Origin: Actinomycetota bacterium | GTDB taxonomy: Bacteria; Actinomycetota; AC-67 | Assembly (NCBI GenBank): GCA_036397035.1 | Contig: DASWJS010000014.1 | Coordinates: 36,014-100,013 of the forward strand | DNA length: 64,000 nucleotides | Reading direction: 5' to 3' | The notes under the pieces: model-generated | Seen by the model: the letters and a program-made list of their open reading frames with translations, nothing else | Databases searched by the model: none | Told to the model about the DNA's origin: nothing | Position numbers and translations under genes: made by a program | Shown here: in pieces, positions 737-27,173 of the stretch | Layout: every line of letters begins with the position of its first letter | How positions within the stretch are numbered: position 1 is the stretch's first letter

Positions 737-737
737 C

Positions 738-2264: not shown

Positions 2265-2273
2265 GCTTTCCCC

Positions 2274-4609: not shown

Positions 4610-4612
4610 CGT

Positions 4613-5104: not shown

Positions 5105-5682
5105 TCGGCACCGCCCCCGTAGTCCTTGGCCTGCGCGGCAAGCTCCTTCGGATCCTCCGCGCCGTCGTCCAGCGCCGGGGGCGGCGGGACGAGCTTCATC
5201 CACTCGCCGAGCGTCGGCATCTCGTGGGTCAGCTCGGTGATGTCGTCGGTCGAGTACTCGAAGTGCGGCGACCAGAACAGCGCGTCGAACGGGCAGACCT
5301 CGACGCAGATCCCGCAGTACATGCACAGCGCGTAGTCGATCGCGAAGCGGTCGAGCATGTTCCGCGTCCGCGCGCGAGCGCCCGGCGTCTTCGGCGGCAC
5401 CTTCTCCTTGTGGGAGTCGATGTAGATGCACCAGTCGGGGCACTCGCGCGAGCACAGCATGCAGACCGTGCAGTTCTCTTCCTTCAGCGCGATGATCCCG
5501 CGTGTGCGCGGCGGCAGGTCCGGCTTCACGTGCGGGTACTGCTGCGTCGTCGCGGGCGTGAGCATCGTGCGCAGCGTGACGCTCAGCCCCTTGGCGAGGC
5601 CGTAGACGGCGCCGATCCCCTTCTTCGAGGCGATCGTGCGCTCCAGGGCGCGCAGCTTCTCGAGGCGCTCGGCGCTGATCAT
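5101..5682 (-). CDS. nuoI: NADH-quinone oxidoreductase subunit I (2x[4Fe-4S])
   Basis: Two ferredoxin motifs ([12 protein letters not shown] and [12 protein letters not shown]). Has a ~45-aa acidic/Pro-rich C-terminal extension. Confidence 0.9.
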
Positions 5683-6690
5683 CTAGAAGGCCACCTTGAA
5701 GATCATCGTGAGCAGGATGTTCACCAAAGCGATCGGGATCAGGTACTTCCACGCCATCTTCTGGAGCTGGTCCTCGCGCAGGCGCGGGTAGGTCGCGCGC
5801 AGCCAGATGATGAAGAAGGCGAGCAGACCGACCTTGCCGAGCGTCCAGATCGGCGCCGGGATGAACGGGATCAGCAGCCCGTGCCAGCCGCCGAGGTAGA
5901 GCACCGTCGCCACCGCCGACAGCGCGACGATCCCCGCGTACTCGGCCAGCAGGAACATCGCGAAGCGCACGCCGGTGTACTCGGTCATGTGACCGAAAAT
6001 GATCTCGGAGTCCGCGATCGGCATGTCGAAGGGAGGGCGCGACAGCTCGGCGAGGCTCGCCAGCAAGAAGAGCGCGAAGCCGGCGAACTGCGGGATGACG
6101 AACCAGTAGCTGTCCTGCGCCTCGACGATCCCGACGAGTGAGATCGTGCCCGCCTGCATCGCGACGGCGCTCGCGGCGAGCACCAGCGGCAGCTCGTATG
6201 CGATGAGCTGCGCGGCGCCGCGGATCGCGCCGATGAGCGCGAACTTGTTGGCGCTCGACCAGCCCGCCATCAGCATGCCGATGACGCCGATCGCGCTGAT
6301 CGCCAGCACGAAGAACAGCCCGAGGTCGAAGTTCTCGCCCCAGATGCCGTTGGCGGGGTTGTCTCCGGGTCCGGGCCCGAAGGGCAGCACCAAGAACACC
6401 AGGATCGTGGGAACCAAGGCCACGATGGGTGCGACGGAGAAGACCTTGCGGTCGGCCGCCGCCGGGATGATGTCCTCCTTCTGGATGAACTTCACGCCGT
6501 CGGCGATGAGCTGCGCCCAGCCGTGAAACTTGCCGGCCTCCATCGGCCCGAGCCGCGACTGCATGTGCGCGAGCCCCTTGTGCTCGGCATAGCCCACGAC
6601 CATCGGCGCGGTCAGGAAGACGAGCAGCACCGCGACCACCTTGAAGACGAGCACGATCCAGGGGTTGGCGAACAGCTCGTTGAAGATCAC
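5683..6690 (-). CDS. nuoH: NADH-quinone oxidoreductase subunit H
   Basis: 335-aa polytopic protein with NuoH/ND1 motifs (MQSRLGPMEAG, AGWSSANKFALIGAIRGAAQLIAYE). Only a 22-nt gap to nuoD, with no room for nuoEFG. Confidence 0.9.
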   Translation of the reverse strand: MIFNELFANPWIVLVFKVVAVLLVFLTAPMVVGYAEHKGLAHMQSRLGPMEAGKFHGWAQLIADGVKFIQKEDIIPAAADRKVFSVAPIVALVPTILVFLVLPFGPGPGDNPANGIWGENFDLGLFFVLAISAIGVIGMLMAGWSSANKFALIGAIRGAAQLIAYELPLVLAASAVAMQAGTISLVGIVEAQDSYWFVIPQFAGFALFLLASLAELSRPPFDMPIADSEIIFGHMTEYTGVRFAMFLLAEYAGIVALSAVATVLYLGGWHGLLIPFIPAPIWTLGKVGLLAFFIIWLRATYPRLREDQLQKMAWKYLIPIALVNILLTMIFKVAF

Positions 6691-6712
6691 CGGCGCGCCC
6701 CCCTGCTCGTCC

Positions 6713-7906
6713 TCATCGATCGACGTCCCCGACGACGAAGAACACGCTGCCGAGCACCGCGATCAGGTCCGGCAGCAGGATCCCCTCCAGCAGGTACGGG
6801 ATCATCGAGACGTTGTGGAAGGACGGCGTGCGCATCTTGAGCCGCCACGGCTCCTTCTCACCACGCGAGACGAGGTAGTAACCCAGCTCGCCCAGCGAGT
6901 TCTCGACGCGCGTGTAGGTCCAGCCCTCCGGCGGCTGGATGTACTTCGGCATCTTGCCCGGCAGGATCGCGCCGGCCGGCATCTTGTCGTGCACCTGCTC
7001 GATGATCTTCAGCGACTCCTCGATGCGGCGGTACAGCACGACGAAGCGGTCGTAGCAATCGCCGTTCTCGCCAACCGGCACGTCGAAGTCGACCTCGTCG
7101 TATTTCAGGTAGGGCTCGGTCTTGCGGGCGTCCTCGGCCACCCCGGATGCCTGCAGGATCGGGCCGCTGACGCCGTAAGACTTGGCGACCTCGCCGGGCA
7201 GCACGCCGATGCCGACCGTGCGCTTGCGAAAGATCTCGTTGCCGAGCAGCAACCCGTCGTAGTCCAGCAGCCGGTGCCGGATCTTGCGGACCAGCGCGGC
7301 CGAGTGCTTCAGGAACCCCGCCGGCAGGTCCTCCTTCAGCCCGCCGACGCGGTTGTAGGTGAAGTGCATGCGCGCGCCGGTCGCGGCCTCCAGCAGGTTC
7401 TGGATGTCCTCGCGTTCGCGGAACGCCAGGAACATCGGCGTCATCGCGCCCAGCTCCAGCCCGAAGGAGCCGAGGAACATCAGGTGGTTCAGCACGCGGT
7501 TCCACTCGGCCATCAGCATCCGGATCCACTGCGCGCGCTCCGGCACCTCCATCTCCATCAGCTTCTCGACCGCCAGCACGACGCCAAGCTCGTTACCGAA
7601 GGCGCTCAGCCAGTCGTGGCGGTTGGACAGCGCGATGATCTGCCGGTAGTCGCGCACCTCCGAGAGCTTGTCGAAGGCGCGGTGCATGTAGCCGATGACC
7701 GGCGTGGCCGTGGCGATGCGCTCGCCGTCGAGCGTGAGCACGACGCGAAGCACGCCGTGGGTCGAGGGGTGCTGCGGCCCGATCGACAGCGTCATCTCTT
7801 GCGTGGCGAACTCCGCCTCGGCGCCGGCGATCACGACCTGGACGCCCTCGCCGGGGCCGCCGGGGATCGTTCCCGCCTGCCGCAGCTCGGTGGGCCCCGC
7901 CATCAT
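6713..7906 (-). CDS. nuoD: NADH-quinone oxidoreductase subunit D (49 kDa)
   Basis: 398 aa from MMAGPTEL.. with [18 protein letters not shown] and C-terminal RTPSFHNV motifs. ATG at 7906 is adjacent to the nuoC stop. The upstream 132 codons of the track ORF are frame artefact. Confidence 0.85.
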   Translation of the reverse strand: MMAGPTELRQAGTIPGGPGEGVQVVIAGAEAEFATQEMTLSIGPQHPSTHGVLRVVLTLDGERIATATPVIGYMHRAFDKLSEVRDYRQIIALSNRHDWLSAFGNELGVVLAVEKLMEMEVPERAQWIRMLMAEWNRVLNHLMFLGSFGLELGAMTPMFLAFREREDIQNLLEAATGARMHFTYNRVGGLKEDLPAGFLKHSAALVRKIRHRLLDYDGLLLGNEIFRKRTVGIGVLPGEVAKSYGVSGPILQASGVAEDARKTEPYLKYDEVDFDVPVGENGDCYDRFVVLYRRIEESLKIIEQVHDKMPAGAILPGKMPKYIQPPEGWTYTRVENSLGELGYYLVSRGEKEPWRLKMRTPSFHNVSMIPYLLEGILLPDLIAVLGSVFFVVGDVDR

Positions 7907-8406
7907 TGTGACGGTGACACCTCCTCCGGCTCCTTCTCGCCCGGCCACTCCTTGGCCTCGCGCGTCATCAGCTTGAAGTCCTTGCGCAGCGGATGGCCCT
8001 CGAACTCGACCGGCAGCAGCAGCTTCACCAGGTTCGGGTGCCCGGCGAAGTCGATGCCGAACAGCTCGTTCGTCTCGCGCTCGCACCAGTTGGCGCCGAG
8101 CCACACCTCCGACAGCGTCGGCAGCGACGGGTTCTCGCGCCCGAGCACCGTCTTGACGTTGACGTGGTGCTGGCGGCGGACCGAGTAGACGTGGAGCACG
8201 ACCTCGAAGCCCTCGGCCTCCAGGTCGACCGCGGTCAGGAACGTGCAGAAGTCGAAGTGGCAGTGCCCGCAGTCGCGCAGGTGCGTCGCGACTTCGACCC
8301 ACCGGGCGGGCGCTACCCAGACCGAGACCTCGCCGTGCGCGACCTCGCTGCGCTCGACGGCGCCGGTGGCGTCCGTGAGGTGCTGGACGATCTCGTCGGG
8401 GCTCAT
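7903..8406 (-). CDS. nuoC: NADH-quinone oxidoreductase subunit C (30 kDa)
   Basis: 167 aa from [10 protein letters not shown].. containing ERETNELFGIDFAGHPNL. ATG overlaps the nuoB stop. Confidence 0.85.
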   Translation of the reverse strand: MSPDEIVQHLTDATGAVERSEVAHGEVSVWVAPARWVEVATHLRDCGHCHFDFCTFLTAVDLEAEGFEVVLHVYSVRRQHHVNVKTVLGRENPSLPTLSEVWLGANWCERETNELFGIDFAGHPNLVKLLLPVEFEGHPLRKDFKLMTREAKEWPGEKEPEEVSPSQ

Positions 8407-8951
8407 CACTCGTCGCGGATCGCGGTCTGGTGGATGGGTCCGCCGCCGACCACGATCGGCTCGGTCGCGCGACGCCGCGCGAAGTGGTCCTTCAAGCTCT
8501 CCTGGCCGATGCGCTCCTGCAGCTTGAGGATCCCTTCGAGCAGCGCCTCGGGCCGCGGCGGGCACCCCGGCACGTAGACGTCGACCGGCACGATCTGGTC
8601 CACGCCCTTGGTCACCGAGTAGGAGTCCCAGAAGGGCCCGCCGCAGTTCGAGCACGACCCGAAGGAGATCACGTACTTCGGCTCGGGGATCTGCTCGTAG
8701 ACGCGCTTGAGCGCGGGCGCCATCTTGTCAGTCAGCGTCCCGGCGACGACGAGCATGTCGGCCTGGCGCGGCCCGTGCGCGACCGGGATCACGCCCAGGC
8801 GGATGAAGTCGTGCCGGCTGGTGGAGGCGGCGATCAGCTCGATCGCGCAGCACGCGAGCCCGAAGTTCATCACCCAGAGGCTGTACTTGCGGCCCCAGTT
8901 GAGGATGAACTTGGCGGGCTTCGGGAAGTTGACTTGCTCGACGAGCCCCAT
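8406..8951 (-). CDS. nuoB: NADH-quinone oxidoreductase subunit B (20 kDa, N2 cluster)
   Basis: 181 aa with [19 protein letters not shown] and VPGCPP cysteine motifs. Confidence 0.9.
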
Positions 8952-8972
8952 CAGTCGGTCACACCCACTCCC

Positions 8973-9344
8973 TCACACCCACTCCAGGACCTTCTTCTTC
9001 CATGCGTAGAGCAGGCCGACAGCCAGGATGACCACGAACACGATCATCTCCACCAGGACCAGCCCCGCGTTGGGGAACCGCTCGAAGATCGTGGCGAAGG
9101 GGAAGAGGAACACCGCCTCGACGTCGAAGATCACGAACAGGAAGGCGTAGATGTAGTAGCGGATCTGGGTCTGGCTCCAGCCCTCGCCGACGGGGTCCAC
9201 GCCGCACTCGTAGGTCGTGTACTTCTCGGGCCGGGCGAAGGTCGGCCGCATGATCCGGTTGACCAGAAACCCGACGGCGACAAAGCCCGCGCCGGCCACC
9301 GCGAGCACGCCCAGAGTCCCGTATTGCCAGAAGTAATCCGTCAC
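8973..9344 (-). CDS. nuoA: NADH-quinone oxidoreductase subunit A
   Basis: 123 aa from GTG at 9344 (VTDYFWQYGTLGVLAV...YECGVDP...YIYAFLFVIFDVEAVFLFP). A GGAG Shine-Dalgarno lies 6 nt upstream. The N-terminal 32 codons of the track ORF are probably not translated. Confidence 0.8.
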   Translation of the reverse strand: MTDYFWQYGTLGVLAVAGAGFVAVGFLVNRIMRPTFARPEKYTTYECGVDPVGEGWSQTQIRYYIYAFLFVIFDVEAVFLFPFATIFERFPNAGLVLVEMIVFVVILAVGLLYAWKKKVLEWV

Positions 9345-9466
9345 CTGAACTCCCCGTTCGCGCGCTCGTGCTCGCACCCTTGTGAAGGCGCTCACGAGCG
9401 GCGCGCGGCGCATCGTATCGCAGCCACTCCGACCACCCAAAACGGTGGGAAGCTAGGTGGCGTCGG

Positions 9467-9694
9467 TCAGAGCAACTCGATGAACTCCTGCCTGCTTATC
9501 CCTGCGACACGCAGAATCCCGTGAAGCGTGCCGGTCTTGAGATCGCGGTTGTGCATGGGGACGGACACGGCTTTCTTCAGCGCGGGGTGCACCATGATGT
9601 GGTGGGAACCGCGAACCCGATCCAGGCGCCAGCCCTTCTTCTCCAGCACCCGGACGAGTTCCCTCGGCTTGACCGCCGGCAGCTTCGCGCTCAC
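9467..9694 (-). CDS. hicA: HicA-family toxin (mRNA interferase, YcfA-like)
   Basis: PRELVRVLEKKGWRLDRVRGSHHIM...VPMHNRDLKTGTLHGILRVAGI fits the HicA fold and motif. Probable GTG at 9694 overlapping the hicB stop (GTGA). Confidence 0.7.
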   Translation of the reverse strand: MSAKLPAVKPRELVRVLEKKGWRLDRVRGSHHIMVHPALKKAVSVPMHNRDLKTGTLHGILRVAGISRQEFIELL

Positions 9695-9918
9695 GAAGCG
9701 CGAATCACGACTCGATCCCGCTCGCTCGCGGGCGGGTCCCACCCCTGCCCGCGCATGGCATCGAGGTATCCCTCGATAGCCTCTTTCGCCATCGCCAGAG
9801 CGTCGTCACGACTCTCCCCCTCCGTGACCACATCCGGCAACTCAGGGACGAGAACGGTGAACCCACCCTCGTCTTGGGGAACGAGGATGACCTCGTACTC
9901 GCGCTCCCTAGCCATCAC
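9691..9918 (-). CDS. hicB: HicB-family antitoxin
   Basis: 75-aa acidic protein (EYEVILVPQDEGGFTVLVPELPDVVTEGESRDDALAMAKEAIEGYL) of the UPF0150/HicB-like type. Overlaps hicA. Confidence 0.65.
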   Translation of the reverse strand: MMAREREYEVILVPQDEGGFTVLVPELPDVVTEGESRDDALAMAKEAIEGYLDAMRGQGWDPPASERDRVVIRAS

Positions 9919-9982
9919 TCGATACCTCCTTCTCAGTCATTAGAGTCCGCCATCCGATTGGCTGCTCATCCTTGAGTCGTCC

Positions 9983-10016
9983 GCCCAACAGCCCGTTGCA
10001 CGCGCAAGTTAGACCG
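9983..10016. repeat. intergenic repeat element copy 1 (attC-like: GCCCAAC ... TTGCACGCGCAAGTTAGAC)
   Basis: 20/22-nt identity with 10604-10625. On the gene strand it reads GTCTAAC(TAA stop)-TTGCGCGTGCAAC-GGGCT-GTTGGGC. It lies between the DUF2442 stop and the hicB start. Confidence 0.4.
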
Positions 10017-10260
10017 CACTCGTGGCGCTCGCCCGCTCGTGGAGTGCCTCCGGAGCGATATCAGCGCCATTCGGCCACGTGATCGTGCCTGCTTCCACGA
10101 AGAATCGCTTGAAGAACTCGGGAGATCGCAGCGGTTCGAACATCGGTCCTGAGAGCCAGTCCTCGAAGTCCACGATCGAGTCCAAACCATCGTTGAACAC
10201 AACCCTGATCCGGAATCCGTCCACGTATTCAGCCGCGGTCACGAGCGGGAGCGGTTCCAT
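10009..10260 (-). CDS. DUF2442-family small protein
   Basis: 83 aa ending ..WPNGADIAPEALHE, typical of DUF2442. Immediately downstream of the DUF4160 gene, which is the usual pairing. Confidence 0.55.
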   Translation of the reverse strand: MEPLPLVTAAEYVDGFRIRVVFNDGLDSIVDFEDWLSGPMFEPLRSPEFFKRFFVEAGTITWPNGADIAPEALHERASATSAV

Positions 10261-10269
10261 GGGAGCATT

Positions 10270-10530
10270 CTACTGGAGCGGCTCGATCCGTTCGAGGCGT
10301 TCCCCGCCTCGCGCCCGATCCCAATCGGCGGCCAGTTCCACAGCGTGCGCCCGCGCCCACTCCTCGATGAGTCTCTTGGCGGTCCGAGACCGGAGCTGGC
10401 CAGCCAGCGGCGTTCCGTCGAAGGTGAAGGTCGCCTGTTCGCCCTGATGCTCCGCATGAAAATGGGGTGGAGCGTGGTCTCGGTAATACATGCGGATCAC
10501 GATTCCGAAGAACGTCGAGATGACGGGCAT
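10270..10530 (-). CDS. DUF4160-family small protein
   Basis: 86 aa with MPVISTFFGIVIRMYYRDHAPPHFHAEHQGEQATFTFDGTPL, the DUF4160 signature. Forms a putative TA-like pair with DUF2442. Confidence 0.55.
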   Translation of the reverse strand: MPVISTFFGIVIRMYYRDHAPPHFHAEHQGEQATFTFDGTPLAGQLRSRTAKRLIEEWARAHAVELAADWDRARGGERLERIEPLQ

Positions 10531-10558
10531 GCGGCGATCGTATCTCGCCGCAGGGACG

Positions 10559-10627
10559 GCCTAACGACCCGGCGCGTCAGCGGCCGGATGCCGCAGGCGG
10601 ACGGCCCCTTGCACGCGCGAGTTAGCT
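10559..10627. repeat. intergenic repeat element copy 2 (attC-like, ~69 bp)
   Basis: On the gene strand it reads AGCTAAC(TAA stop)-TCGCGCGTGCAAGGGGCC, then an imperfect hairpin GGCCG..CGGCC, then GTTAGGC. It lies between the Cys-rich gene stop and the DUF4160 start. Confidence 0.4.
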
Positions 10628-10993
10628 GGCAATCTCCGTGCTGATCGCATCGGGTTCCAGGATAAGGGCATGGGGCATCCAGCAGTCCGATTTCTCTGTG
10701 CCCACTGCGTGTCCTTTCCGGCAGAGGACGTTGGGACCGTCCAACCCGTCGAGACCACAGCACCCGTTCAGTCGGGAGGGGTCGTCCGTGCGTCGGATGT
10801 TCCTCGCATCGTGAAGATTCATGATTACTTTGCCCTCGGTTCCCGTGAAGAACGAGCCGTCCGAGAGAACGTAGCGTCCTTCGGGTACATGGGGTGCGTT
10901 ATCTGCATCGGATAGAGCGGTGAGATCGGCAAGCTCTTCGAGATGGCTCGAGAGCTCCGTCTTGCACAGCTGGCAACGAAACATGTGGCTCAT
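10622..10993 (-). CDS. hypothetical Cys/His-rich (probable Zn-binding) protein
   Basis: 123 aa with CQLC..(68)..GCCGLDGLDGPNVLCRKGH..DCWMPH. I do not recognise the family. The TAA stop is embedded in a repeated intergenic element. Confidence 0.4.
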   Translation of the reverse strand: MSHMFRCQLCKTELSSHLEELADLTALSDADNAPHVPEGRYVLSDGSFFTGTEGKVIMNLHDARNIRRTDDPSRLNGCCGLDGLDGPNVLCRKGHAVGTEKSDCWMPHALILEPDAISTEIAS

Positions 10994-11309
10994 CCGATGT
11001 TAGCCGGGTTAACTCCTTCTTGAAAAGACCGGGTTAACACCCGTCTGAGCAGATAACACCTAGTCGACGCGGGTCGAGGAGTCAGCTTGCCATGATTGAC
11101 TTGCAAGAACCCTCGCGCGAAGCCCTTTGGACATTTGTCCAGAGCGAGCTATGCGCTCGCGCCCAGCGGTTCGAGCGGGCGGGCGGGGATCGCCGGGAGC
11201 GGGGACTCGGTGGGCCCCTCGAACGGCGCGCCAGCGACGTGAGAGGGAGGACCGCAGTGAGCGAACTCGGTGACGCGGTCACGCGTCGCCGAGTTCGGGA
11301 ACGGGTCCC

Positions 11310-11332
11310 CGCGGAGGCGAGCCACGCCCGCC
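11310..11332. repeat. 23-bp perfect direct repeat, copy A (CGCGGAGGCGAGCCACGCCCGCC)
   Basis: Identical 23-mer at 14241-14263. Lies ~45 nt 3' of the 408-aa gene in a 380-bp noncoding stretch. Confidence 0.7.
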
Positions 11333-11375
11333 TGCGGACCCTCAGAGGAGAGGCAACCCGGCAGGCTCGCGCAGG

Positions 11376-12602
11376 TCAGGACTCTACGACGACGTCGATC
11401 CGGCTCGCGCGCAAAGGCAGGAAGCCAAGGAACGCGTACGTGCGCCGGATGGCGATCACCGTGGTGTCGTACCGATCTGCGAGCGCGCGCGCGGCGGCGG
11501 CCGGGCTCTTGCCCCGCGCGAGCGCCGGTCCGTCCTCGATCCCGATCAACTCGACTGTGGCGGTGACCGTGGCCTCGATGCGGCCGCGCCGCAGGACGGG
11601 CTCCTCCGGCCGAAGCGACCCCTCGACGATCGCATGCGCCTCAGGCAGCAGCGGCTCGAGCTGCTCGAGCGCCCGGTCTTCGAGCGCGCGAACGCTGAAG
11701 GCCGCCGCTCGCGCGTTGACGCGGGCCGTGACCGACGGCGTCGAGCACGAGTAGCAGTCGACCGCGTTCCATGCCTGCCCGTCCCGGATCGTGACCTCGC
11801 GATCGAGCATGATCGTGCCGTCGAACCCCTTGCGCGCGGCCGCGCGCTCGGTCCGGTCCCGGATCGCCGTCGTCGCCGCCTCGCGCGCGGCACGGCGAGC
11901 GGCTTCGACGTCGGGCACGCGAACCAGCGGTACGCCCGCGTCGCGTCCGCCCGTGATCGACTTCAGGTTCGCCGTGTACACGTTCACGCCGTCGAGCTGC
12001 TTGACCTCGGTGTACTCGACGTAGTGCTCGCCGGCGTGATTCGCGTCGTCGCCCGCCTCCAGCGCGACGATCGGAACCTCGAGCGAGCGCAGATGGCACT
12101 CCTCGGCGACGATGAAGAGCAGGAAGATGGGGAAGCCGCACCGCTCGCGCGTCGGCGAGATGCGCGCCGCCGCGGTGGTTCGGTACAGGACGTCGCCCGC
12201 CTCCAAGCACCGCCGATCGTTGTTCTTCGCATGCTTCGCGCACGACCCGACGATTGTCCCGGCCGGCACCAGGCTCGACGGCGCCTCCTGCTTCCGCTCC
12301 GAACACCCCCCGAACGGCTGGTTGCACGTGCGCGGACAACAGAAGAAGATCACCGACCCCTCCGCCCGAGCCGCCGTCGAGCGCCCCGTCGGCTCGACGG
12401 GGCGGGTCACGCTCGACGCCGCGGTCACCTCCGCCGCCGGCACCGACACGCGCGTCTGCACCTGCGCGGGAGCCGCCAGCACGACCGTCGCCCGCGGCGC
12501 GAGCGCGAACATCCCCGCCAGCGTCAGCACCACCGTGATGGCAGCCGCAAGCCAAAGAATCCGCGACTTCGTCCCCGTCCGAGCGTCCGAGTTCTCTGGC
12601 AT
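11376..12602 (-). CDS. hypothetical membrane-anchored Cys-rich protein
   Basis: 408 aa with an N-terminal TM/signal anchor (ILWLAAAITVVLTLAGMFALA) and a Cys-rich region. Overlapping ORFs in other frames look like Arg/His/Asp-rich frame artefacts. Function unknown; gene model uncertain. Confidence 0.35.
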   Translation of the reverse strand: MPENSDARTGTKSRILWLAAAITVVLTLAGMFALAPRATVVLAAPAQVQTRVSVPAAEVTAASSVTRPVEPTGRSTAARAEGSVIFFCCPRTCNQPFGGCSERKQEAPSSLVPAGTIVGSCAKHAKNNDRRCLEAGDVLYRTTAAARISPTRERCGFPIFLLFIVAEECHLRSLEVPIVALEAGDDANHAGEHYVEYTEVKQLDGVNVYTANLKSITGGRDAGVPLVRVPDVEAARRAAREAATTAIRDRTERAAARKGFDGTIMLDREVTIRDGQAWNAVDCYSCSTPSVTARVNARAAAFSVRALEDRALEQLEPLLPEAHAIVEGSLRPEEPVLRRGRIEATVTATVELIGIEDGPALARGKSPAAAARALADRYDTTVIAIRRTYAFLGFLPLRASRIDVVVES

Positions 12603-12676
12603 CGAGCCGTTACCCGGCGCGCTGTGTGCGGTTGAAGCGGACCGAGATAGACAACGAGCGCAACGGTGCGTTCAAG

Positions 12677-12910
12677 CTACCGCGCCTCGTCGAGTGGCCT
12701 GACGGCGATCACATCGCGTTCTTCGACTGGACGCACGTCATCGATCCTCAGAGTCAGCACGGCCTGCGTTCTTCCCGATCCCGTCACGAACTCGACCTCC
12801 AAGCCGTCGGGTTCGTAACGCTCGACCACAGTGCCAAGGTCACCACGACGGAGCCCGTGCTCCGGGACGTCTCGAGCAAGGACAACGGTCTGAAGCAGTT
12901 CATATCTCAT
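12677..12910 (-). CDS. DUF4926-family small protein
   Basis: 77 aa (MRYELLQTVVLARDVPEHGLRRGDLGTVVERYEPDGLEVEFV..) matching the DUF4926 pattern. 4-nt overlap with the upstream DUF6883 gene. Confidence 0.5.
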   Translation of the reverse strand: MRYELLQTVVLARDVPEHGLRRGDLGTVVERYEPDGLEVEFVTGSGRTQAVLTLRIDDVRPVEERDVIAVRPLDEAR

Positions 12911-13245
12911 GGCCTCGCTCCTGGGAACGCCGTCACGAACCTCGGGGCATCCTCACCCGTAAGGATAATCCAGACCGACACGACCTGAGCCTCCTTTCCG
13001 CCAGGCCCGCGCAACGGTCCGCTAACGGTGTATTTCCGGCCAAACGCCGTCTCTTCCATTGAAGCGATTCCCTCGACAGCGTGCATCCTGAGATCAGCGA
13101 GCAAGGTTCCCCACGCCTCGGGCGTATAGCCGAGAGCTGCGAAGAACTTCGCCTTGAACTGCCCAACTGGATGCGACGAAGACAGAAGGTAATCGCGTAC
13201 CTTGCGAGGCTCAACGACGGCCTCGTTGGCACCTTCGAACGACAT
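12907..13245 (-). CDS. DUF6883-family protein
   Basis: 112 aa with DYLLSSSHPVGQFKAKFFAALGYTPEAW, a DUF6883-like region. This family is commonly paired with DUF4926. Confidence 0.5.
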   Translation of the reverse strand: MSFEGANEAVVEPRKVRDYLLSSSHPVGQFKAKFFAALGYTPEAWGTLLADLRMHAVEGIASMEETAFGRKYTVSGPLRGPGGKEAQVVSVWIILTGEDAPRFVTAFPGARP

Positions 13246-13472
13246 CGCGCGACTCTACAGCGCCGCAGGGACACAACAGACCGACGGATCGGTTCACAGC
13301 ACGTGTCGACAGCGAGGACCAATCACGAGGTGGCTGTTTGGCCGCTTGCGCGCTTCGGTCGGTCGGCGTTCAACCGATCGTGCTCGTCACTACCCACTCC
13401 TTCTCTTCCAACATCTTTGGGACCTCCGTCAACGCGCGGCTGAGCGACGCTTCAATCCCCCCACGCTCAAAG

Positions 13473-13700
13473 CTAGCGAGCGTTTGAGGGCGGGTCACCG
13501 TCGTCCATGTTCTTGCGTACTGGGTTCCAGTAGAGGACGTTTAGCGTGGCGAGCGCGGCGAAGGCAAGCGCCTCCCACTGACGCGTGACGAAGAACCCGA
13601 TCACTCCGAACACCGCAAAGACCGAGCCGAGCACGACCTGCCACGTAGCGTGCCTTCCGACGCGCCGGCGGACCTTTTCGTCCCTCGGTTCCCTGAACAT
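13473..13700 (-). CDS. hypothetical small membrane protein (2 TM)
   Basis: 75 aa with a basic N-terminus and two hydrophobic helices. No recognisable family. Confidence 0.35.
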   Translation of the reverse strand: MFREPRDEKVRRRVGRHATWQVVLGSVFAVFGVIGFFVTRQWEALAFAALATLNVLYWNPVRKNMDDGDPPSNAR

Positions 13701-13806
13701 CAGCCGCTCGTTCCAATCCGCGGTCGCACGGCGTGCTCGCGTGAGCTATCCGTCACCGGAGAACATGCCCACGAGCGGTCGGAGCCCCTCGGGCTGCCTC
13801 ATCGAG

Positions 13807-13953
13807 CTATCGCGCAACGTGGCGCACCTCACCAAGCACTTGCCCGTTGGTCTCGCCGCGGAGCTTGAGGGGCATCAGGATCTGCGTGCCTGCATTTCCC
13901 GGTGCCCTGAAAGCCATCGGTGCGGTTGGGTGCTCGTCAAGCAGTACGCGCAC
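13807..13953 (-). pseudogene. DUF5615-like (Mut7-C/PIN-like) remnant, truncated
   Basis: GTG overlapping the DUF433 stop gives VRVLLDEHPTAP..., the start of the usual DUF5615 partner of DUF433. It stops after about 48 codons (full length is ~110 aa), and the downstream frames are broken. Confidence 0.3.
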
Positions 13954-14165
13954 GCGGAACTGCGCCCTCCAGGGCATCGAGAGCCTCGTTGACCTGCTCA
14001 CGAGTCACGGACGGAAACTGCTTCAGGAACTCCTCGACGCTGTAATCGTCTTCGAGATAGTCGATCAGGTTCCGAAGCGGCACCCGCGTGCCGACGAACA
14101 CCGGAGTCCCGCCGAGGATCTCCGGGTCAGAGTGCACGACCGAACTCAGATCACCCACGCCGTGA
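13937..14165 (-). CDS. DUF433-family protein (antitoxin-like)
   Basis: C-terminal ~75 aa of the track ORF (SDPEILGGTPVFVGTRVPLRNLIDYLEDDYSVEEFLKQFPSVTREQVNEALDAL) is a typical DUF433. Start codon is ambiguous (GTG or TTG around 14150-14190). Confidence 0.55.
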
Positions 14166-14240
14166 TCATACCGCCTCGAGTCGCCCTGCCTACCGCATTC
14201 GCCAGCGTCAGAGCGTATTCCCGCGAGGATCGTCGCAACA

Positions 14241-14263
14241 CGCGGAGGCGAGCCACGCCCGCC
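14241..14263. repeat. 23-bp perfect direct repeat, copy B
   Basis: Identical to 11310-11332. Lies immediately 3' of the GT2 gene stop (14272) at the right-hand edge of the small-gene island. Confidence 0.7.
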
Positions 14264-14271
14264 CGCATGGC

Positions 14272-15126
14272 TCAGATGATGGGCGGACGGCCCGCGCGGG
14301 TCATGCGGGCGACGGTGCTCCAGCGGATGGGTTTGCGCTCGCCCGCCGGCTCGCGAAAGCCGGCGCCGAAGCCGGCGAGGAGCGCGCGCGCGTCGGCGAG
14401 GGAGCGGGCTCGGGCGAGCGTGAGGACCATCCAGACCGCCACGTAGATCGGCGCGAGGAGCCACGGCAGGCGGCGGCGGGCGAGGAAGACGCGGTTCCGA
14501 GCAGTCGTGCGATGGAACCAGGCGTGGCGCTCGGCCGGCTCGGACGGGTGCGCCACCGCGAGGTCGCCCGCGTAGCGAACGGCATAGCCCGCGTCGAGCG
14601 CTCGCCAGGCGAGGTCGGTGCCCTCGTGGCCGAAGTAGAACTCCTCGGGATATCCGCCGACCTCGGCGAACACCGAGGCCCGGATGGCGCACGCGCCTTC
14701 CAGGAACGTCGTCGCATCGCTCGACCGGCGCGGGTCCCCCGCGCGCAGTCGGGGAACGTGACGGCGCTGGCCCGGCCGACCGCTCGGGTCGTCGATGCGA
14801 AACGAGACGATGCCGAGGCGCGGCTCGGCATCGAACCGGGACAGCGCCCGCGCGACGAGGTCGCGATCGGGATAGGACGTGTCGTCGTCCAGGAAGAACA
14901 GGACGTCGGCGCGAACGGCCTCGACGGCTCGGTTGCGCGCCGCGGCCGGGCCGACGTTCTCCGGTAGCGCGAGCACCCGCACGCCCGCGCCTACCGCCGG
15001 CGGCTCGCACCCGTTGCAGACGAGCCAGACCTCGGGCGAGCCCTCTTGCGCGAGCGCCGAATCCAGCGCGCGCGCGACCTCGGCGGGCCGGGACCCAGCC
15101 GTCAGGACGATGCAGGCCGCGTTCAC
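14272..15126 (-). CDS. glycosyltransferase family 2
   Basis: 284 aa from GTG at 15126 (GTGA overlap with the upstream stop). GT-A motifs: CIVLTAGSRP..., FFLDDDTSY (DxD), GGYPEEFYFGHEGTDLAWR. Confidence 0.75.
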   Translation of the reverse strand: MNAACIVLTAGSRPAEVARALDSALAQEGSPEVWLVCNGCEPPAVGAGVRVLALPENVGPAAARNRAVEAVRADVLFFLDDDTSYPDRDLVARALSRFDAEPRLGIVSFRIDDPSGRPGQRRHVPRLRAGDPRRSSDATTFLEGACAIRASVFAEVGGYPEEFYFGHEGTDLAWRALDAGYAVRYAGDLAVAHPSEPAERHAWFHRTTARNRVFLARRRLPWLLAPIYVAVWMVLTLARARSLADARALLAGFGAGFREPAGERKPIRWSTVARMTRAGRPPII

Positions 15127-15896
15127 CGCAGGCGCTTCGAGGCGAGGATCATCACGAAGTGACCGCCCGCGATCAGCGCCGTCAGGAAGAAGTAGAAGGC
15201 GACGAGGGGCAGGGTCACGTCCACGTGCCACCACATCGCGTCGAACACGCGCAGCACGCCGACGATCAGGGAGGCTTCGATCGCGCCGGTCAGTCGATAG
15301 AGGGGGAGCATCCGCGCGAGCCGCCGCGCCGCGCCCAGCCCACCCGAAGGAACCGACACGGCCTCCTCGTCGGCCGCGACCGGCAGGCCCGCCTTCGCGC
15401 GCGCGACGTGCACGAGGTCGGTCTCGACCTTGCCGACGAAGTGGAACAACGCCGCGCCCATGCCCAGCCCGATCCACGACGGGCTCCACACGCGCGCCGC
15501 GTAGATGCCGAGCGCCGCGAAGAACGACCCCTCGACGAGGTAGTGGCCGAGCCGGTCGATGAAGATGCCCGTCGCGCCGGTCGTCTGACGCCAGCGCGCG
15601 ACTTCGCCGTCGGAGCAATCCAGCAGCAAGTAGAGCTGGATCAGGGCCATGCCCTCGATCGGCGCGGTGGGGCCTTGCAGCGCGAACAGCAGCGCGCCGC
15701 ACACGCCGACGACGGCCATCGCGAAGGTGATGACGTTCGCGCTGAGGCCCGTGCGCACGAGCAGCCACGTGACGTAGATGCTCACGCGCCGGCCGTAGAG
15801 GCGGCCGGCCCAGTGCTCGCCGGAGTAGCGCGCGATCAGCCCGGGGGGCTGGCAGACGGCGCGCAGCTCAGCGATCGAAGGATTCGAGGAAGGCAT
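15123..15896 (-). CDS. CDP-alcohol phosphatidyltransferase family protein
   Basis: 257-aa polytopic protein with the family motif D-x2-DG-x2-AR-x8-G-x3-G-x3-D-x3-D (DCSDGEVARWRQTTGATGIFIDRLGHYLVE). Confidence 0.8.
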   Translation of the reverse strand: MPSSNPSIAELRAVCQPPGLIARYSGEHWAGRLYGRRVSIYVTWLLVRTGLSANVITFAMAVVGVCGALLFALQGPTAPIEGMALIQLYLLLDCSDGEVARWRQTTGATGIFIDRLGHYLVEGSFFAALGIYAARVWSPSWIGLGMGAALFHFVGKVETDLVHVARAKAGLPVAADEEAVSVPSGGLGAARRLARMLPLYRLTGAIEASLIVGVLRVFDAMWWHVDVTLPLVAFYFFLTALIAGGHFVMILASKRLR

Positions 15897-16923
15897 CCAC
15901 TCGGCTCCGCACCTCGTCGTGGCCGAGGCCGAGGTGCTCCAGGATCGTGTAGCGGTCTGGCCGGGTCTCGGGCGCCTTGACCACCGCGGAGGTGAAGTCG
16001 TCGGCGCCTAGGCCGAGGTCGCCCGGCAGCCGCGGCACGCCGTAGCGGCGCAGGCACGCGTCGAGGTCCGCGATGCCGGGGTCCGCTCGCAGGAAGCTCG
16101 CGAAGAGCGCCCCGACGGCCACTTGCTCGCCGTGCAGCCCGGTCCCGGGGAACAGCGCGTCGATCGCGTGGGAGATCTCGTGGCACGCGCCGCTGCACGG
16201 CCGGCTGCTGCCGGCGATTCCCATCGACAGGCCGCTCAGGATCAGTGCCTCGGCGAGCGCGGTCAGGAACGTCTCGGAGTCGATCGCGTCGGTCCGGCGC
16301 ACGACCGCCGCCGAAGCCGAGCGCGCGAGCGACACCGCGAGCCCGTCGATCGGCTCGCGCCGCTCGCGCGCGGCAAGCTCCCAGTCGGCGACGGCCGACA
16401 GGTTGGACACCGCGTCGCCGATGCCCGATCGCGTGTGCCGCTCGGGGCTGCGCGTGACGTAGTCCAGGTCCACGACGACCGCGATCGGAAGCTGCACGCC
16501 GTAGGAGCCCTTGCGGTCGCCGGTGCGAAGGACGGCGACCGGCGAGGCGAGCCCGTCGTGCGTGAGCGTCGTGGCGACCGAGACGAACGGCAACCCGACG
16601 GCGCTCGCCGCGTACTTGCCGACGTCGAGCGTGCCGCCGCCGCCGATGCCGACGACCGCGTCGTAGAACGAGCCGCGGAGCTGCTCGGCGAGGCGATGCG
16701 CCGACTCCATGCTGCCGCCTTCGACGGTGATCAGCTCGGCGCTCGGCAGGCTGCCCGCGAGGTGCGCGGCGATCTGCTCGCCCATGCCTTCGCCGACCGC
16801 GATCGCGACGCTGCCGCCCGCGGAGATGCGCCCGTCGGCCAGCAGCCGCGCGAGCCCTTCCACCGCGCCGCGCCGGATGTCCACCGCGATCGGAGCCGGG
16901 ATCGTGCGCGCGAGCAGCGGCAT
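15868..16923 (-). CDS. egsA: glycerol-1-phosphate dehydrogenase [NAD(P)+]-like (G1PDH/EgsA/AraM family, DHQS-like fold)
   Basis: 351 aa. GIGGGGTLDVGKYAASAVGLPFVSVATTLTHDGLASPVAVL matches the G1PDH signature (GGG..DV.KYAA...PFISVPT.ASHDGIASP). Metal-ligand His residues are present near the C-terminus (CHEISHAID, GLHGEQV). Confidence 0.7.
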   Translation of the reverse strand: MPLLARTIPAPIAVDIRRGAVEGLARLLADGRISAGGSVAIAVGEGMGEQIAAHLAGSLPSAELITVEGGSMESAHRLAEQLRGSFYDAVVGIGGGGTLDVGKYAASAVGLPFVSVATTLTHDGLASPVAVLRTGDRKGSYGVQLPIAVVVDLDYVTRSPERHTRSGIGDAVSNLSAVADWELAARERREPIDGLAVSLARSASAAVVRRTDAIDSETFLTALAEALILSGLSMGIAGSSRPCSGACHEISHAIDALFPGTGLHGEQVAVGALFASFLRADPGIADLDACLRRYGVPRLPGDLGLGADDFTSAVVKAPETRPDRYTILEHLGLGHDEVRSRVDAFLESFDR

Positions 16924-17687
16924 CAGCGCGCCTCCCGCGCCGGGGCCGGCGCGGGCGCGATGCCCAGCGTGCGCGCGCGCTCCAAGTCGGCCGGCGTGTC
17001 TACCTCCACCCAGTCGAGCCCTCCCACCGACACGGTACGCACTTCTCCTCCCGCGTCTGCGTAGGCCTGGAACCCGTCCTCGTAGTACAGGGACGGGTCG
17101 GCCCGCCAGGTCCGCTCGAGCGCCTCCGCCAGGTCCGCAGCCGCGGACGGCTCGATCAAGGTGACGCCGATGTACTCGCCGTGCGCGCGGGCGGGCTCCA
17201 TCTCCTTCGTGATGCGCGCGAGCCGCCCGTCCTCCAGCACGACCTTCATCTCCTCCTCGGCCAGCACCTTGACGTCGTCGAGCGCGATCAGCACGCCGGG
17301 CCCGCGCGCGGCGAGCATCCGCTGCTCGACCGCGACCGGATGGACGGTGTCGCCGTTGACGACCATCGCGCCGCGCGCGAAGTGCTCGCGCGCGAGCCAG
17401 AGCGAGTAGGCGTTGTTCCAGTCGAGCGCGCGGTCGTTCGCGACGAGGCCGAGCCGTACGCCGTGCGCGGCCTCCAGGTCGCTCACGCGCCGCTCGATCG
17501 CCTCCGCCGCGTAGCCGACGACGACGAAGACCTCCTCGATCCCCGCGGCGCGAAGGTTCGACAGCGCGACGTCCAGGATCGTCCAGCCGCCACCGATCGG
17601 CGCGAGCGCCTTCGGGATGTCCGCGGTCAGCGGGCGCAGGCGCTTGCCCTCACCGGCCGCGAGCACGATCCCGGCCAGGTCGCTCAC
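16923..17687 (-). CDS. nucleotidyltransferase (NTP_transferase family; putative polyol-phosphate cytidylyltransferase)
   Basis: 254 aa from GTG at 17687 (GTGA overlap with the upstream stop). N-terminus GIVLAAGEGKRLRPLTADIPKAL is the sugar/polyol-phosphate nucleotidyltransferase G-x-G-x-R motif. Size and fold resemble IPCT/MobA-like enzymes. Confidence 0.7.
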   Translation of the reverse strand: MSDLAGIVLAAGEGKRLRPLTADIPKALAPIGGGWTILDVALSNLRAAGIEEVFVVVGYAAEAIERRVSDLEAAHGVRLGLVANDRALDWNNAYSLWLAREHFARGAMVVNGDTVHPVAVEQRMLAARGPGVLIALDDVKVLAEEEMKVVLEDGRLARITKEMEPARAHGEYIGVTLIEPSAAADLAEALERTWRADPSLYYEDGFQAYADAGGEVRTVSVGGLDWVEVDTPADLERARTLGIAPAPAPAREAR

Positions 17688-18517
17688 ACGCCCTCCGCCG
17701 GCCGGCTCTTCAGGATCCGCTTGACCAAACGCCGGGTCGCGCGAGAGGCGAGGAAGAGCTTCGCCACGATCGCGATCTCGAACGCCAGCAGCAGCGCCGC
17801 GGCGGCGAGCGTGACGACGGCCACCTGCCCGGTGGCGGGACCCAGGATGAACACGAACATCTGGAACTCGATGCCGCTGAACAGGTGCGAGCGGATGCGC
17901 CGGCGCCCCAGCGCGTTGCGAACCCGCGACAGCAACGGGAAGCGGCGGGCGACCGCGCGCTGTATGCGGTCCTCCTCGCCGCGTTCGGCCCCGATCCCGC
18001 CGGCTTTGAGGCCGGCCTCGCGTCGCGCGTCGCGCACCTGTTTGCGGAGCCGCGCCTGCAACGACTCGATCTTCAGCGCGTCCACGTACCGCAGCATGTC
18101 CAGGAAGATGACGAGCATCCCGAGGTACAGGTACCGCTCGTCGCCGGCGAGCCGGAACCGTCCGCCCATCAATGCGAGCGTGACCGCGAGCACGCGGATG
18201 CGATCGAAGACGTAGTCGAGCCACTCGCCGAAGTACGACCCCGTTCCCGCCAGGCGCGCGACCTTGCCGTCGACGCAATCCATCGTGAAGCTCGCGTGAT
18301 AGAGCAGCGCCCCCACGATCAGCGCGGTCGCCGAACCGCTCCAGAAGAACCACGCGGACGCGAGGCCCAAGGCGAGCGAGGCGGCTGAGATCTGGTTCGG
18401 CGTGAGCCTGGTGTAGTTCACCGCGACCAGGCTGAGGCGGACGGCGACCGGGTCCACCAGGATCACGGTCCACCACGAGTCGCGGGGCTTGATCGCACGC
18501 GTGCGCGCGTCGGCCAT
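17684..18517 (-). CDS. CDP-alcohol phosphatidyltransferase family protein (second copy)
   Basis: 277-aa membrane protein with DCVDGKVARLAGTGSYFGEWLDYVFDRIRVL (D-x2-DG-x2-AR...G...D-x3-D). Confidence 0.75.
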   Translation of the reverse strand: MADARTRAIKPRDSWWTVILVDPVAVRLSLVAVNYTRLTPNQISAASLALGLASAWFFWSGSATALIVGALLYHASFTMDCVDGKVARLAGTGSYFGEWLDYVFDRIRVLAVTLALMGGRFRLAGDERYLYLGMLVIFLDMLRYVDALKIESLQARLRKQVRDARREAGLKAGGIGAERGEEDRIQRAVARRFPLLSRVRNALGRRRIRSHLFSGIEFQMFVFILGPATGQVAVVTLAAAALLLAFEIAIVAKLFLASRATRRLVKRILKSRPAEGV

Positions 18518-18546
18518 CGTGTAGTGCGCGCGCGAGCGCGTCGTGC

Positions 18547-19359
18547 TCACTCCTCGTCCTCTGCCTCGTCCTGGAAGGCGGTGTAGAGCGGAAGGACCTC
18601 CTCGGTCGGACCGTCGGCTCGGACGACGCCGTTCTGCAGCCAGATCGTCCGCTCGCAGTAACGCGTCAGGTCGCTCTCGCGGTGCGACACCAGCACCAGC
18701 GTGCGTCCCTCCTTGGAGAGCTTGTCCTCCATCACTTTCACCGACTTGCGCTTGAAGCGCCGGTCGCCGACGGCGAACACTTCGTCGAGCAGCATCACGT
18801 CCGACTCCACCTGCGCCACGATGCTGAACCCGAGCCGCCCCTTCATGCCCGACGAGAAGTGCTTGAGCGGCATGTCCATGAACCCCTTCAAGCCGGAGAA
18901 GCGCACGATCTTGCGAAAGCGCGCGTCGATCTCCTTCTCGGTCAGGCCCATGATCATCCCCGACAGGTAGACGTTCTCGCGCGCGGTGAGATCGCCCGAG
19001 AAGCCGGCGCCGAGCTCGATCAGCGGCGCGACGCCGCCGTGTACGAGGACCTCGCCCTCGTCCGGGTAGAGCACGCCGGCGATCAGCTTCAGCAGCGTGC
19101 TCTTGCCGGACCCGTTCGAGCCGATCAGCCCGACCGACTCGCCCTTGCGGATCGTGAAGGTGACGTTGCGCAGGGCCCAGAACCGGTCGGCCTTCTGGAA
19201 CCCCCGGATGAAGTGGTCGCGGATGCGCGTCTTCCGGCGGCGGTTGACGTGGAACCAGATGCCGACGTCCCGGCATTCGATGATGGGCGGCGCGTCGGAC
19301 GGCGGCGCGTCGGGACGCCAGTCCTTCGTCACGGTTCCCGTCTGCTCGGCGTCGCTCAT
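18547..19359 (-). CDS. ABC transporter ATP-binding protein (TagH/Wzt-like exporter ATPase)
   Basis: 270 aa from MSDAEQT... with Walker A GSNGSGKST, ABC signature FSSGMKGRLGFS and Walker B VMLLDEVFAVGD. Overlaps the permease stop. Confidence 0.85.
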   Translation of the reverse strand: MSDAEQTGTVTKDWRPDAPPSDAPPIIECRDVGIWFHVNRRRKTRIRDHFIRGFQKADRFWALRNVTFTIRKGESVGLIGSNGSGKSTLLKLIAGVLYPDEGEVLVHGGVAPLIELGAGFSGDLTARENVYLSGMIMGLTEKEIDARFRKIVRFSGLKGFMDMPLKHFSSGMKGRLGFSIVAQVESDVMLLDEVFAVGDRRFKRKSVKVMEDKLSKEGRTLVLVSHRESDLTRYCERTIWLQNGVVRADGPTEEVLPLYTAFQDEAEDEE

Positions 19360-20264: not shown

Positions 20265-20286
20265 GCCCTGCGCGCCGGGAGCGCGT

Positions 20287-22226: not shown

Positions 22227-22230
22227 GACG

Positions 22231-23693: not shown

Positions 23694-23697
<4 letters not shown>
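22231..23697 (-). CDS. nuoN: NADH-quinone oxidoreductase subunit N
   Basis: 488 aa from MSVPIQATPE... (FKVGAVPFHMWTPDVYQGAPT). ATG overlaps the nuoM stop (ATGA). The upstream part of the 926-aa track ORF is frame artefact. Confidence 0.9.

Positions 23698-27169
<3,472 letters not shown>

Positions 27170-27173
<4 letters not shown>

Follow-up and report, generated by a model that had tools for sequence, protein, structure and literature searches.

The island between the GT2 gene and nuoA

The window analysed here is a 64,000-nt stretch of DNA from an uncultured actinobacterium, in which a conserved glycopolymer gene cluster, ending in a gene for a GT2 glycosyltransferase, and the nuo operon are separated by ~4.8 kb. 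In three relatives (L005, L010 and L012) nuoA follows directly after the GT2 gene with a gap of 108-199 nt, and as these relatives carry empty GT2-nuoA sites the island is an insertion, in kind an ordinary accessory islet. What remains of the native intergenic DNA contains a small hairpin (9433-9449), followed by GCTGCGATACGAT and motifs of the TGTGAG..TTCAC type. The window contains no tRNA genes.

Within the island a 23-bp sequence, CGCGGAGGCGAGCCACGCCCGCC, is found on either side of a 2.9-kb block (copies A and B, Table 1), with all of the genes between the two copies on the minus strand. The first gene of the block in the direction of reading is a DUF433 antitoxin-like gene, ahead of which lies a promoter-like site (14192-14165), it is followed by the remnant of a DUF5615 gene, a 75-aa peptide, the DUF6883 and DUF4926 genes and a gene for a 408-aa protein. 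The closest homologues of the DUF433 protein (from L015-L018) are at 88% in amino acids and share DNA with it across the coding region only (82% identity, window 14142-13923), therefore the edge of the module is not defined by them. The toxin-antitoxin modules appear to have promoters of their own.

The composition of the block is mixed, with GC3 of 0.67-0.82 in the toxin-antitoxin-type genes against 0.90 in the 408-aa gene; by this measure the former look foreign and the latter looks host-like. The family of the 408-aa protein is rare, with 9 cluster representatives, and the protein has no significant match in Pfam, PHROG, NCBIfam or among PDB folds, its AlphaFold2 model is beta-rich with a pLDDT of 78. 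It was considered as a hidden recombinase, a role rejected on the grounds of its N-terminal transmembrane helix, its beta-rich model and the lack of a fold or family match. By eye only, the consensus of the family has a putative baseplate-J-like motif (PGxxGN...TGGxDA).

Table 1. Features of the island and its surroundings (window coordinates).
Feature	Position	Strand	Remarks
Native GT2-nuoA intergenic remainder	9344..9449	-	conserved with relatives
Whole island, ~4.8 kb	9450..14271	-	missing from three relatives
R2 copy 2	9988..10012	-	CTAACTTGCGCGTGCAACGGGCTGT; overlaps TAA stop codon of DUF2442
R2 copy 1	10601..10625	-	CTAACTCGCGCGTGCAAGGGGCCGT; overlaps TAA stop codon of 123-aa gene
Structured palindromic element, ~170 nt	11165..11340	-	closing stem formed by A and A', two hairpins enclosed
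Copy A'	11178..11194	+	inverted, degenerate version of the 17-nt core, GGCGGGCGGGGATCGCC
Near-perfect 36-nt palindrome	11262..11297	.	stem 9 + 6 bp, 4-nt loop; within the structured element
Copy A	11310..11332	-	43 nt past 408-aa gene stop codon; 5' arm of the structured element
Block between copies	11333..14240	-	2.9 kb, toxin-antitoxin-type genes and 408-aa gene
408-aa protein gene	11376..12602	-	predicted N-terminal transmembrane helix; GC3 0.90, host-like
DUF4926 gene	12677..12910	-	4-nt overlap with DUF6883
DUF6883 gene	12907..13245	-	
75-aa predicted membrane peptide	13473..13700	-	no family match
DUF5615 remnant	13807..13950	-	N and C termini retained; ~60 codons lost relative to the intact L015 gene
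DUF433 antitoxin-like gene	13937..14158	-	73 aa from GTG 14158, or 66 aa from GTG 14137
Copy B	14241..14263	-	reads GGCGGGCGTGGCTCGCCTCCGCG in gene direction; begins 8 nt past GT2 stop codon
GT2 glycosyltransferase	14272..15126	-	final gene of conserved glycopolymer cluster; host gene, GC3 0.89

The repeats and the palindromic element

The 23-mer is present exactly twice in the window, in direct orientation and with 23/23 identity, and there are still just two sites when up to 3 mismatches are allowed; two matches were obtained in 0/100 shuffles. It is the sole exact repeat of at least 19 nt that is not explained by paralogous nuo genes, the remaining ones all pairing one of the two nuo operons with its paralogue; matches due to chance reach ~18 nt at most. 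The rough expectation for repeats of at least 23 nt within 64 kb is ~0.001-0.01. The repeat is confirmed as direct, non-random and located at module boundaries of an inserted island. A first-pass annotation of this DNA had reported the perfect repeat, had regarded chance as negligible and had listed the genes between the copies, with copy B 3' of GT2 and copy A 3' of the 408-aa gene; all of this holds, the DUF5615 gene of its list being internally deleted. The further weak similarity that it saw downstream on the plus strand (..GC..CTCAG) is also present.

Similarity between the copies stops sharply at their inner ends (anchored test, p > 0.9). On the gene side it dwindles via CTGAG into a stretch that resembles the 3' end of GT2, with marginal significance (anchored 45-nt test, p = 0.016); free local alignment of these flanks was rejected as support, being not significant (p = 0.12). 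A sharp inner edge with a fading gene side is the pattern that attL/attR-type junctions show. If the gene-side similarity is what is left of a longer, decayed duplication, the perfect 23 nt would then require selection or a separate explanation.

A 7-3-7 hairpin (GGCGGGC GTG GCTCGCC) is seen within the 23-mer in folds. No pairing partner is found for copy B. Copy A has one in the inverted copy A', 115 nt away, which matches it at 15/17 positions (18/20 with copy B), and the two close a structured element with an RNA minimum free energy of -101.9 kcal/mol (z = -5.4; z = -3.5 for the DNA fold). That A keeps A' and the enclosed hairpins and B is partnerless is expected if A and its downstream flank are the original site. 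The presence of an inverted partial copy in a large palindromic structure also keeps alive an explanation of the REP/REPIN or MITE type. As for a role as terminator, hairpins are present at both copies without a T-run or U-tract, and a terminator scan called neither site; actinobacterial terminators are often without U-tracts. Rfam searches over 9000-15000 (E <= 1) gave no match except a chance miRNA one.

A second pair of repeats, R2, brackets the DUF4160/DUF2442 module and is the top-scoring of 114,960 ORF-end pairs. As it is independent of the 23-mer and also anchored at stop codons, it suggests that module-by-module accretion with junction repeats recurs in the island. R2, the A/A' element and the mixed composition of the block had all been missed by the first-pass annotation.

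Copies, variants and recombinases beyond the locus

In 73 kb of the genome there are no further copies of the 23-mer with up to 5 substitutions, or of its 17-nt core with up to 2 mismatches. In ~50 kb from relatives, again with up to 5 substitutions, there is one site with 5 mismatches (L010 3937-3959), which lies inside an NTP_transferase ORF and is taken as chance. Genome and metagenome collections contain the 23-mer at the studied locus and in two unrelated coding sequences and nowhere else, these being a MeaB-like gene of Pyrinomonadaceae (L001; 29 nt shared with copy B) and an ArnT-like gene (L007), both read in the frame AEASHAR. Neither was accepted as a true copy, a codon-like GC-rich string of this sort being taken as a chance match; the extra 6 nt of copy B that are matched in L001 are slightly odd. 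The JGI metagenome containing the strain has no other exact copies, viral contigs have none, and plasmid and phage records have no match to the whole 3.15-kb block.

Recombinase domains, whether of integrases, transposases or other types, are absent from the block, from the Pfam annotation covering 1.4-22.6 kb, from the principal ORFs in the rest of the window and from the 9 kb beyond it, and no RAYT-type gene was seen in the 73 kb. Assemblies from four sources contain the locus, namely NCBI TPA (VGB83_03165 and neighbouring locus tags, with proteins HEX9774563.1 and HEX9774568.1), ENA (ERZ27256807), Logan and JGI (Ga0256864). The contigs from ENA, Logan and JGI match the window at 100% identity, and both copies are spanned by the ENA and Logan contigs only. 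Variant contigs without the block, sought via exact GT2, 408-aa, DUF433 and 123-aa proteins, gave identical contigs or no record only, and no excised or empty form of 11333-14240 is found among the four sets of assemblies.

The DNA of the empty sites has no significant similarity to the context of the 23-mer in the three relatives, none of which is a close strain, and as these sites are not alignable with the 23-mer no single-copy attB is demonstrated. Candidate homology in the spacers of the relatives (GGCGnnCGTG; CGCCTCCGC in L010) is plausible by eye and was rejected as not significant. In L010 a different GC-rich palindromic stretch occupies the same position after GT2.

Origin of the repeat

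It is most likely that the repeat marks the recombination site of the block, which would make it a feature of an already known kind, an ordinary insertion scar. Rather more tentatively, and somewhat short of what we would call probable, the 23-mer may be a duplication at a recombination junction, made by a single-crossover or target-duplication insertion in one arm of a terminator-like element that was originally located after GT2. We infer the crossover and the order of events as follows. Ancestrally, a GC-rich palindromic and terminator-like element of ~170 nt would have stood behind the GT2 stop codon, with the 23-mer as its 5' arm. Through a single, Campbell-type crossover in this arm, or through an insertion with duplication of the arm, the 2.9-kb composite block may have entered, bringing in the decaying DUF433/DUF5615 pair, the 75-aa peptide, DUF6883/DUF4926 and the 408-aa gene as cargo. 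Copy B would have stayed beside GT2, and copy A together with the intact palindromic element would have been shifted 2.9 kb downstream. The enzyme would not be a local one; the candidates are a site-specific recombinase supplied in trans and RecA working on very short identity. For RecA recombination 23 bp is at the extreme lower limit (the minimal efficient processing segment of E. coli). Recombination at the repeat would give a deletion junction of ...catcatctgagccatgcg-23-mer-gggacccgttcccgaac and a circle junction of ...ctgagggtccgca-23-mer-tgttgcgacgatcc.

A perfect short direct repeat bracketing accessory DNA is shared with attL/attR elements, integrase-less genomic islets and cryptic integrated elements. 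With all of these there is the further likeness of an insertion right past the 3' end of a conserved gene, an empty island site in relatives and asymmetric flanks. The locus differs from them in that there is no integrase in 73 kb, no tRNA target and no demonstrable single-copy attB, whilst the block is only 2.9 kb in size and compositionally mixed and assemblies show no excised form. The mixed composition, the lack of a local recombinase and the lack of a demonstrable attB and of an excised form in the assemblies also count against a junction duplication, as does the inverted copy A', which a simple att model would not lead one to expect. The first-pass annotation had read the pair as att sites or as serial insertion at a regenerated att site, a reading with which the insertion island, the module boundaries and the asymmetric flanks agree, but the absence of a recombinase from 73 kb and of a demonstrable attB does not. 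The serial part fits by half, as no third direct copy of the 23-mer lies at the far end of the supposedly older part of the island (9450-11309). Likewise, of the single-copy empty site that it looked for in relatives, the absence of the whole island from three of them bears out one part, but their spacers cannot be aligned with the 23-mer; and strains lacking 11333-14240, which it had also proposed to look for, were not found. In 73 kb, the relatives and the public collections, the 23-mer did not turn out to be the dispersed REP-like repeat that the annotation had named as refuting its reading.

The main rival, which is unlikely and still deserves weight, is that B, A and A' belong to a low-copy host family, REP/REPIN-like or of terminator hairpins, that marks gene ends and not insertion junctions. 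In that case GT2 would be followed by a singlet (B) and the 408-aa gene by an inverted doublet (A/A'). Such a family would account for a short imperfect palindrome that is extragenic and 3' of genes, with a hairpin of its own, for a doublet that closes a long hairpin in REPIN fashion, and for direct copies no more than 45 nt past the stops of two genes with host-like codons (GC3 0.89 and 0.90); it is also in keeping with the absence of a recombinase and with the palindrome that L010 has at the same place. However, 73 kb with dozens of intergenic regions has no more copies at the mismatch limits given above, exact copies are absent elsewhere, including from the metagenome holding the strain, and the three that were found all lie within 3.1 kb. 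Identity of 23/23, loop and non-palindromic tail included, with a sharp boundary is unusual for independent members of such a family, and weak gene-side similarity is not expected of REP copies. Unlike doublets mobilised by RAYT, the A/A' pair encloses hairpins in its 115-nt spacer and lacks a GTAG-type head, nor was a RAYT-type gene seen, whilst for terminators the U-tract signature is present at neither site.

It is improbable that a non-autonomous passenger transposon resembling mobile insertion cassettes or MITEs spans 11175-14266 with B and A' as its terminal inverted repeats, or that A..A' alone is a ~160-nt MITE with B as a solo end. The complementarity of A' to B and to A is what such an element would have, and as in these cassettes an inverted repeat pair surrounds passenger genes with no transposase inside. 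A target-site duplication, however, is found at neither B..A' nor A..A', the flanks of which (gagccat / tcgaacc and ggtcc / tcgaa) share nothing, other copies and a cognate insertion sequence are absent from 73 kb, and such an element leaves its internal direct copy, A, unexplained.

How small toxin-antitoxin modules enter chromosomes without a mobility gene is poorly understood, and clean empty sites in relatives together with two junction-type repeat pairs make this locus a tidy case for the gain and loss of modules through short repeats. As the 23-mer pair and R2 each start at or after the stop codon upstream of a module, it could be that modules were added one by one. That toxin-antitoxin and cargo modules accrete singly at gene 3' ends, with the stop-proximal sequence copied each time by an integrase-less or undescribed trans-acting mechanism, is a long shot; if true, Actinomycetota would have a way of capturing cassettes that is distinct from that of integrons.

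A reading of the island as a CALIN, an integron-like array of cassettes lacking an integrase, with the repeats as parts of attC sites, is very improbable. Its genes are all co-oriented, its toxin-antitoxin-type cassettes are small and its repeats start at stop codons, with R2 starting in an RYYYAAC-like manner (GTCTAAC / AGCTAAC) over TAA stop codons and a GTTAGGC 56 nt downstream of the first R2 copy. The 23-mer, however, lacks the AAC/GTT core, there is no canonical attC structure, as the candidate 70-nt R2 site folds no better than shuffles (z = +0.8) with its R''/R' pairing outside the minimum-energy fold and the second candidate site would be just 32 nt long, IntI is absent from the window and the modules appear to be self-promoted.

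A chance match of two GC-rich intergenic stretches is scarcely credible, for whilst the 23-mer resembles a common high-GC codon run (GCG GAG GCG AGC CAC GCC CGC) and has arisen in that frame in the two unrelated coding sequences of very large databases, its length is beyond the observed chance matches, no shuffle gave two matches, and the two copies share one 4.8-kb island and one orientation, each just past a stop codon, with the third, inverted copy close beside A.

A perfect direct repeat within an island between GT2 and nuoA

The 23-mer CGCGGAGGCGAGCCACGCCCGCC, which holds a 7-3-7 hairpin (GGCGGGC GTG GCTCGCC), occurs once behind the GT2 gene (copy B) and once 43 nt past the stop codon of a gene for a 408-aa protein (copy A). 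The window contains no third match with up to three mismatches and no extra copy at up to five substitutions, and two matches were seen in none of 100 dinucleotide shuffles. In an exact-repeat census of the window all other repeats of at least 19 nt lie between the two paralogous nuo operons, with chance exact matches topping out at ~18 nt at 70% GC. Taken together the shuffles, mismatch searches and census mean that the repeat is real and that paralogy does not explain it, a chance match being unlikely; the perfect direct repeat reported by the first-pass annotation therefore holds. The longest exact repeats of the window, up to 28 nt, are common to both nuo operons, and its remaining content is made up of these operons and of cytochrome, haem and sulfate-assimilation genes.

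Positions of features in the window
Feature	Position	Strand	Remarks
nuo operon	1-9343		without NuoE/F/G-type genes; nuoA starts at 9343
Second repeat, CTAACTyGCGCGTGCAAsGGGCyGT	10601-10625 and 9988-10012	minus	direct, on TAA stop codons
Structured element, ~170 nt	11165-11340	minus	3' of 408-aa gene; predicted fold very stable and well defined
A'	11178-11194		inverted, degenerate partner of copy A
Copy A	11310-11332	plus	23-mer
408-aa membrane-anchored protein (predicted)	11376-12602	minus	predicted N-terminal transmembrane helix
DUF5615 remnant	13807-13950	minus	both termini kept; ~60 codons missing against intact homologue (L015, 1004-1325)
Copy B	14241-14263	plus	23-mer; starts 8 nt past GT2 stop codon
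GT2	15126..14272	minus
Conserved cluster	15123-20400		directly upstream of nuoA in all relatives (also in L005, L010)
Second nuo operon	22000-36770		complete, with 51-kDa and 75-kDa subunits

Every gene at the locus is on the minus strand. In gene direction copy B is followed by DUF433, an internally deleted DUF5615, a 75-aa peptide, DUF6883/DUF4926 and the 408-aa gene, and copy A by a 123-aa gene, DUF4160/DUF2442, HicB/HicA and nuoA. The source is an uncultured Actinomycetota MAG. Contigs from ENA, Logan and JGI match the window at this locus with 100% identity; both copies lie on those from ENA and Logan, and copy B alone on that from JGI. The JGI contig (Ga0256864_1010368) begins at window position 14315, which leaves 75 nt to the inner edge of copy B; a branch of the assembly graph at the repeat could account for such a start, as could low coverage alone.

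Three relatives, with GT2 proteins of 63-66% identity, have the glycopolymer cluster in full together with the nuo operon, and in all three the gap between GT2 and nuoA is only 108-199 nt. Window positions 9344-9449 retain the nuoA-proximal spacer hairpin and promoter-like motifs of the relatives, thus ~4.8 kb (roughly 9450-14271) is extra in the window and this island is an insertion. No significant similarity was found between the relatives' GT2-nuoA spacers and the contexts of the 23-mer, so an origin of the 23-mer in the ancestral host cannot be read from them. The conserved cluster encodes a polyprenyl synthase, two GT2, an ABC-2 exporter, two CDP-alcohol phosphatidyltransferase-like proteins, a nucleotidyltransferase and an Fe-ADH_2 (glycerol-1-phosphate dehydrogenase-like) protein. 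In one relative (L010, 7180-7270) the GT2 stop codon is directly followed by ~75 nt of additional GC-rich palindromic sequence, where the window has the island, and the site just 3' of GT2 seems to be variable within the clade.

Flanks and structure of the two copies

Identity breaks off sharply at the inner edge of each copy, which in gene direction is the downstream one (anchored test p > 0.9). Towards the gene both have CTGAG 7-8 nt off, which in copy B includes the GT2 stop codon. Farther out, the stretch before copy A weakly resembles the final ~37 nt of GT2 (p = 0.016 in the anchored 45-nt test), and free local alignment of the gene-side flanks gives p = 0.12.

Copy A also has an inverted and degenerate partner, A', that was missed at first and matches copy A at 15/17 positions and copy B at 18/20. 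Together A and A' close a structure of ~170 nt, inside which lie a palindrome of 36 nt that is near-perfect and one further hairpin. The fold predicted for RNA reaches -101.9 kcal/mol (z = -5.4), with minimum-energy and centroid structures near-identical, and that modelled for DNA has z = -3.5. The element has no match in Rfam and may be a terminator or 3'-UTR RNA, or else MITE-like. GC content from the 408-aa stop codon through A' is 75%. Copy B lacks a partner of this kind (fold z = +0.6); local pairing with the flank at the GT2 stop codon is possible, yet it is no better than in shuffles.

Genes of the island and a second repeat

GC3 is host-like in GT2 (0.89) and in the 408-aa gene (0.90), and 0.67-0.82 in the toxin-antitoxin-type genes, thus the block between the copies is mixed in composition. 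Judged from their sequences, DUF433 and DUF5615 are a putative toxin-antitoxin pair in decay, with the antitoxin retained. The 408-aa family is rare, with 9 cluster representatives among 1.84 billion at ~30% identity, and the surroundings of its homologues are unrelated: a radC-like neighbour in one locus (L004), AMP-binding and ferritin-like genes on either side in another (L013). The protein matches no Pfam, PHROG or NCBIfam family and no PDB fold, and there is no indication that it is a recombinase. By eye, the family consensus seems to have a PGxxGN...TGGxDA motif reminiscent of baseplate-J proteins.

The second repeat overlaps the TAA stops of the 123-aa gene and DUF2442 and brackets the DUF4160/DUF2442 module. 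Anchored on the stop codons it matches at 18/21 positions, which puts this pair first among the window's 114,960 ORF-end pairs.

Origin of the repeat pair

The reading that we tentatively favour is a junction duplication. GT2 would originally have had the palindromic element directly behind it, and the 2.9-kb block would have recombined into the 5' arm of this element, leaving copy B beside GT2 and moving copy A, with its structure intact, downstream. This is suggested by the abrupt inner boundaries and asymmetric flank similarity, by a structure that is intact at copy A only, by the uniqueness of the motif and by the reappearance of a junction repeat one module further on, at DUF4160/DUF2442. 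Against it stand the block's mixed composition and the lack of a recombinase, a variant and a demonstrable attB. The insertion scar (attL/attR-like) proposed by the first-pass annotation is partly supported. Its serial insertion at a regenerated att site fits only in half, as the island's older half lacks a direct copy at the distal end. Recombinase and transposase domains were looked for in the block, the annotated 1.4-22.6 kb, the flank outside the window and, by Pfam scan, the main ORFs that remained; none turned up, and look-ups with exact proteins found no contigs with another arrangement. A short direct repeat edging an accessory block in an integrase-less islet is a kind of feature already known, and its significance is modest.

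The main rival, which appears doubtful, is that the copies belong to a low-copy REP/REPIN-like or terminator-hairpin family behind host-type genes. There is no further copy in the window or in the 9.3 kb beyond its left end, and the sole match at up to five substitutions in ~50 kb of relatives (L010, 3937-3959) has 5 mismatches, lies inside an NTP_transferase ORF and is taken as chance. Searches of viral contigs, plasmids and phages with the 23-mer or the block gave no match. The genome-wide dispersed REP-like repeat that was named at the outset as speaking against an insertion is thus not indicated by the searches of the window and its 9.3-kb extension, the relatives and public collections. 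A transposon cassette is unlikely, as is an integron-like origin; folding gives no support to an attC-like reading of the second repeat.

Scanning 185,579 species genomes for exact copies gave one match. It comes from a Pyrinomonadaceae MAG, lies within a MeaB-like coding sequence and agrees with copy B over 29 nt (L001, 7058-7086). A scan of JGI metagenomes gave copy B of the same strain and one match in an unrelated ArnT-like coding sequence (L007, 352-376). Both foreign matches share the reading frame AEASHAR, and the 23-mer resembles a string of common high-GC codons; they are probably chance, with the 6 extra nt in the MeaB-like gene mildly surprising.
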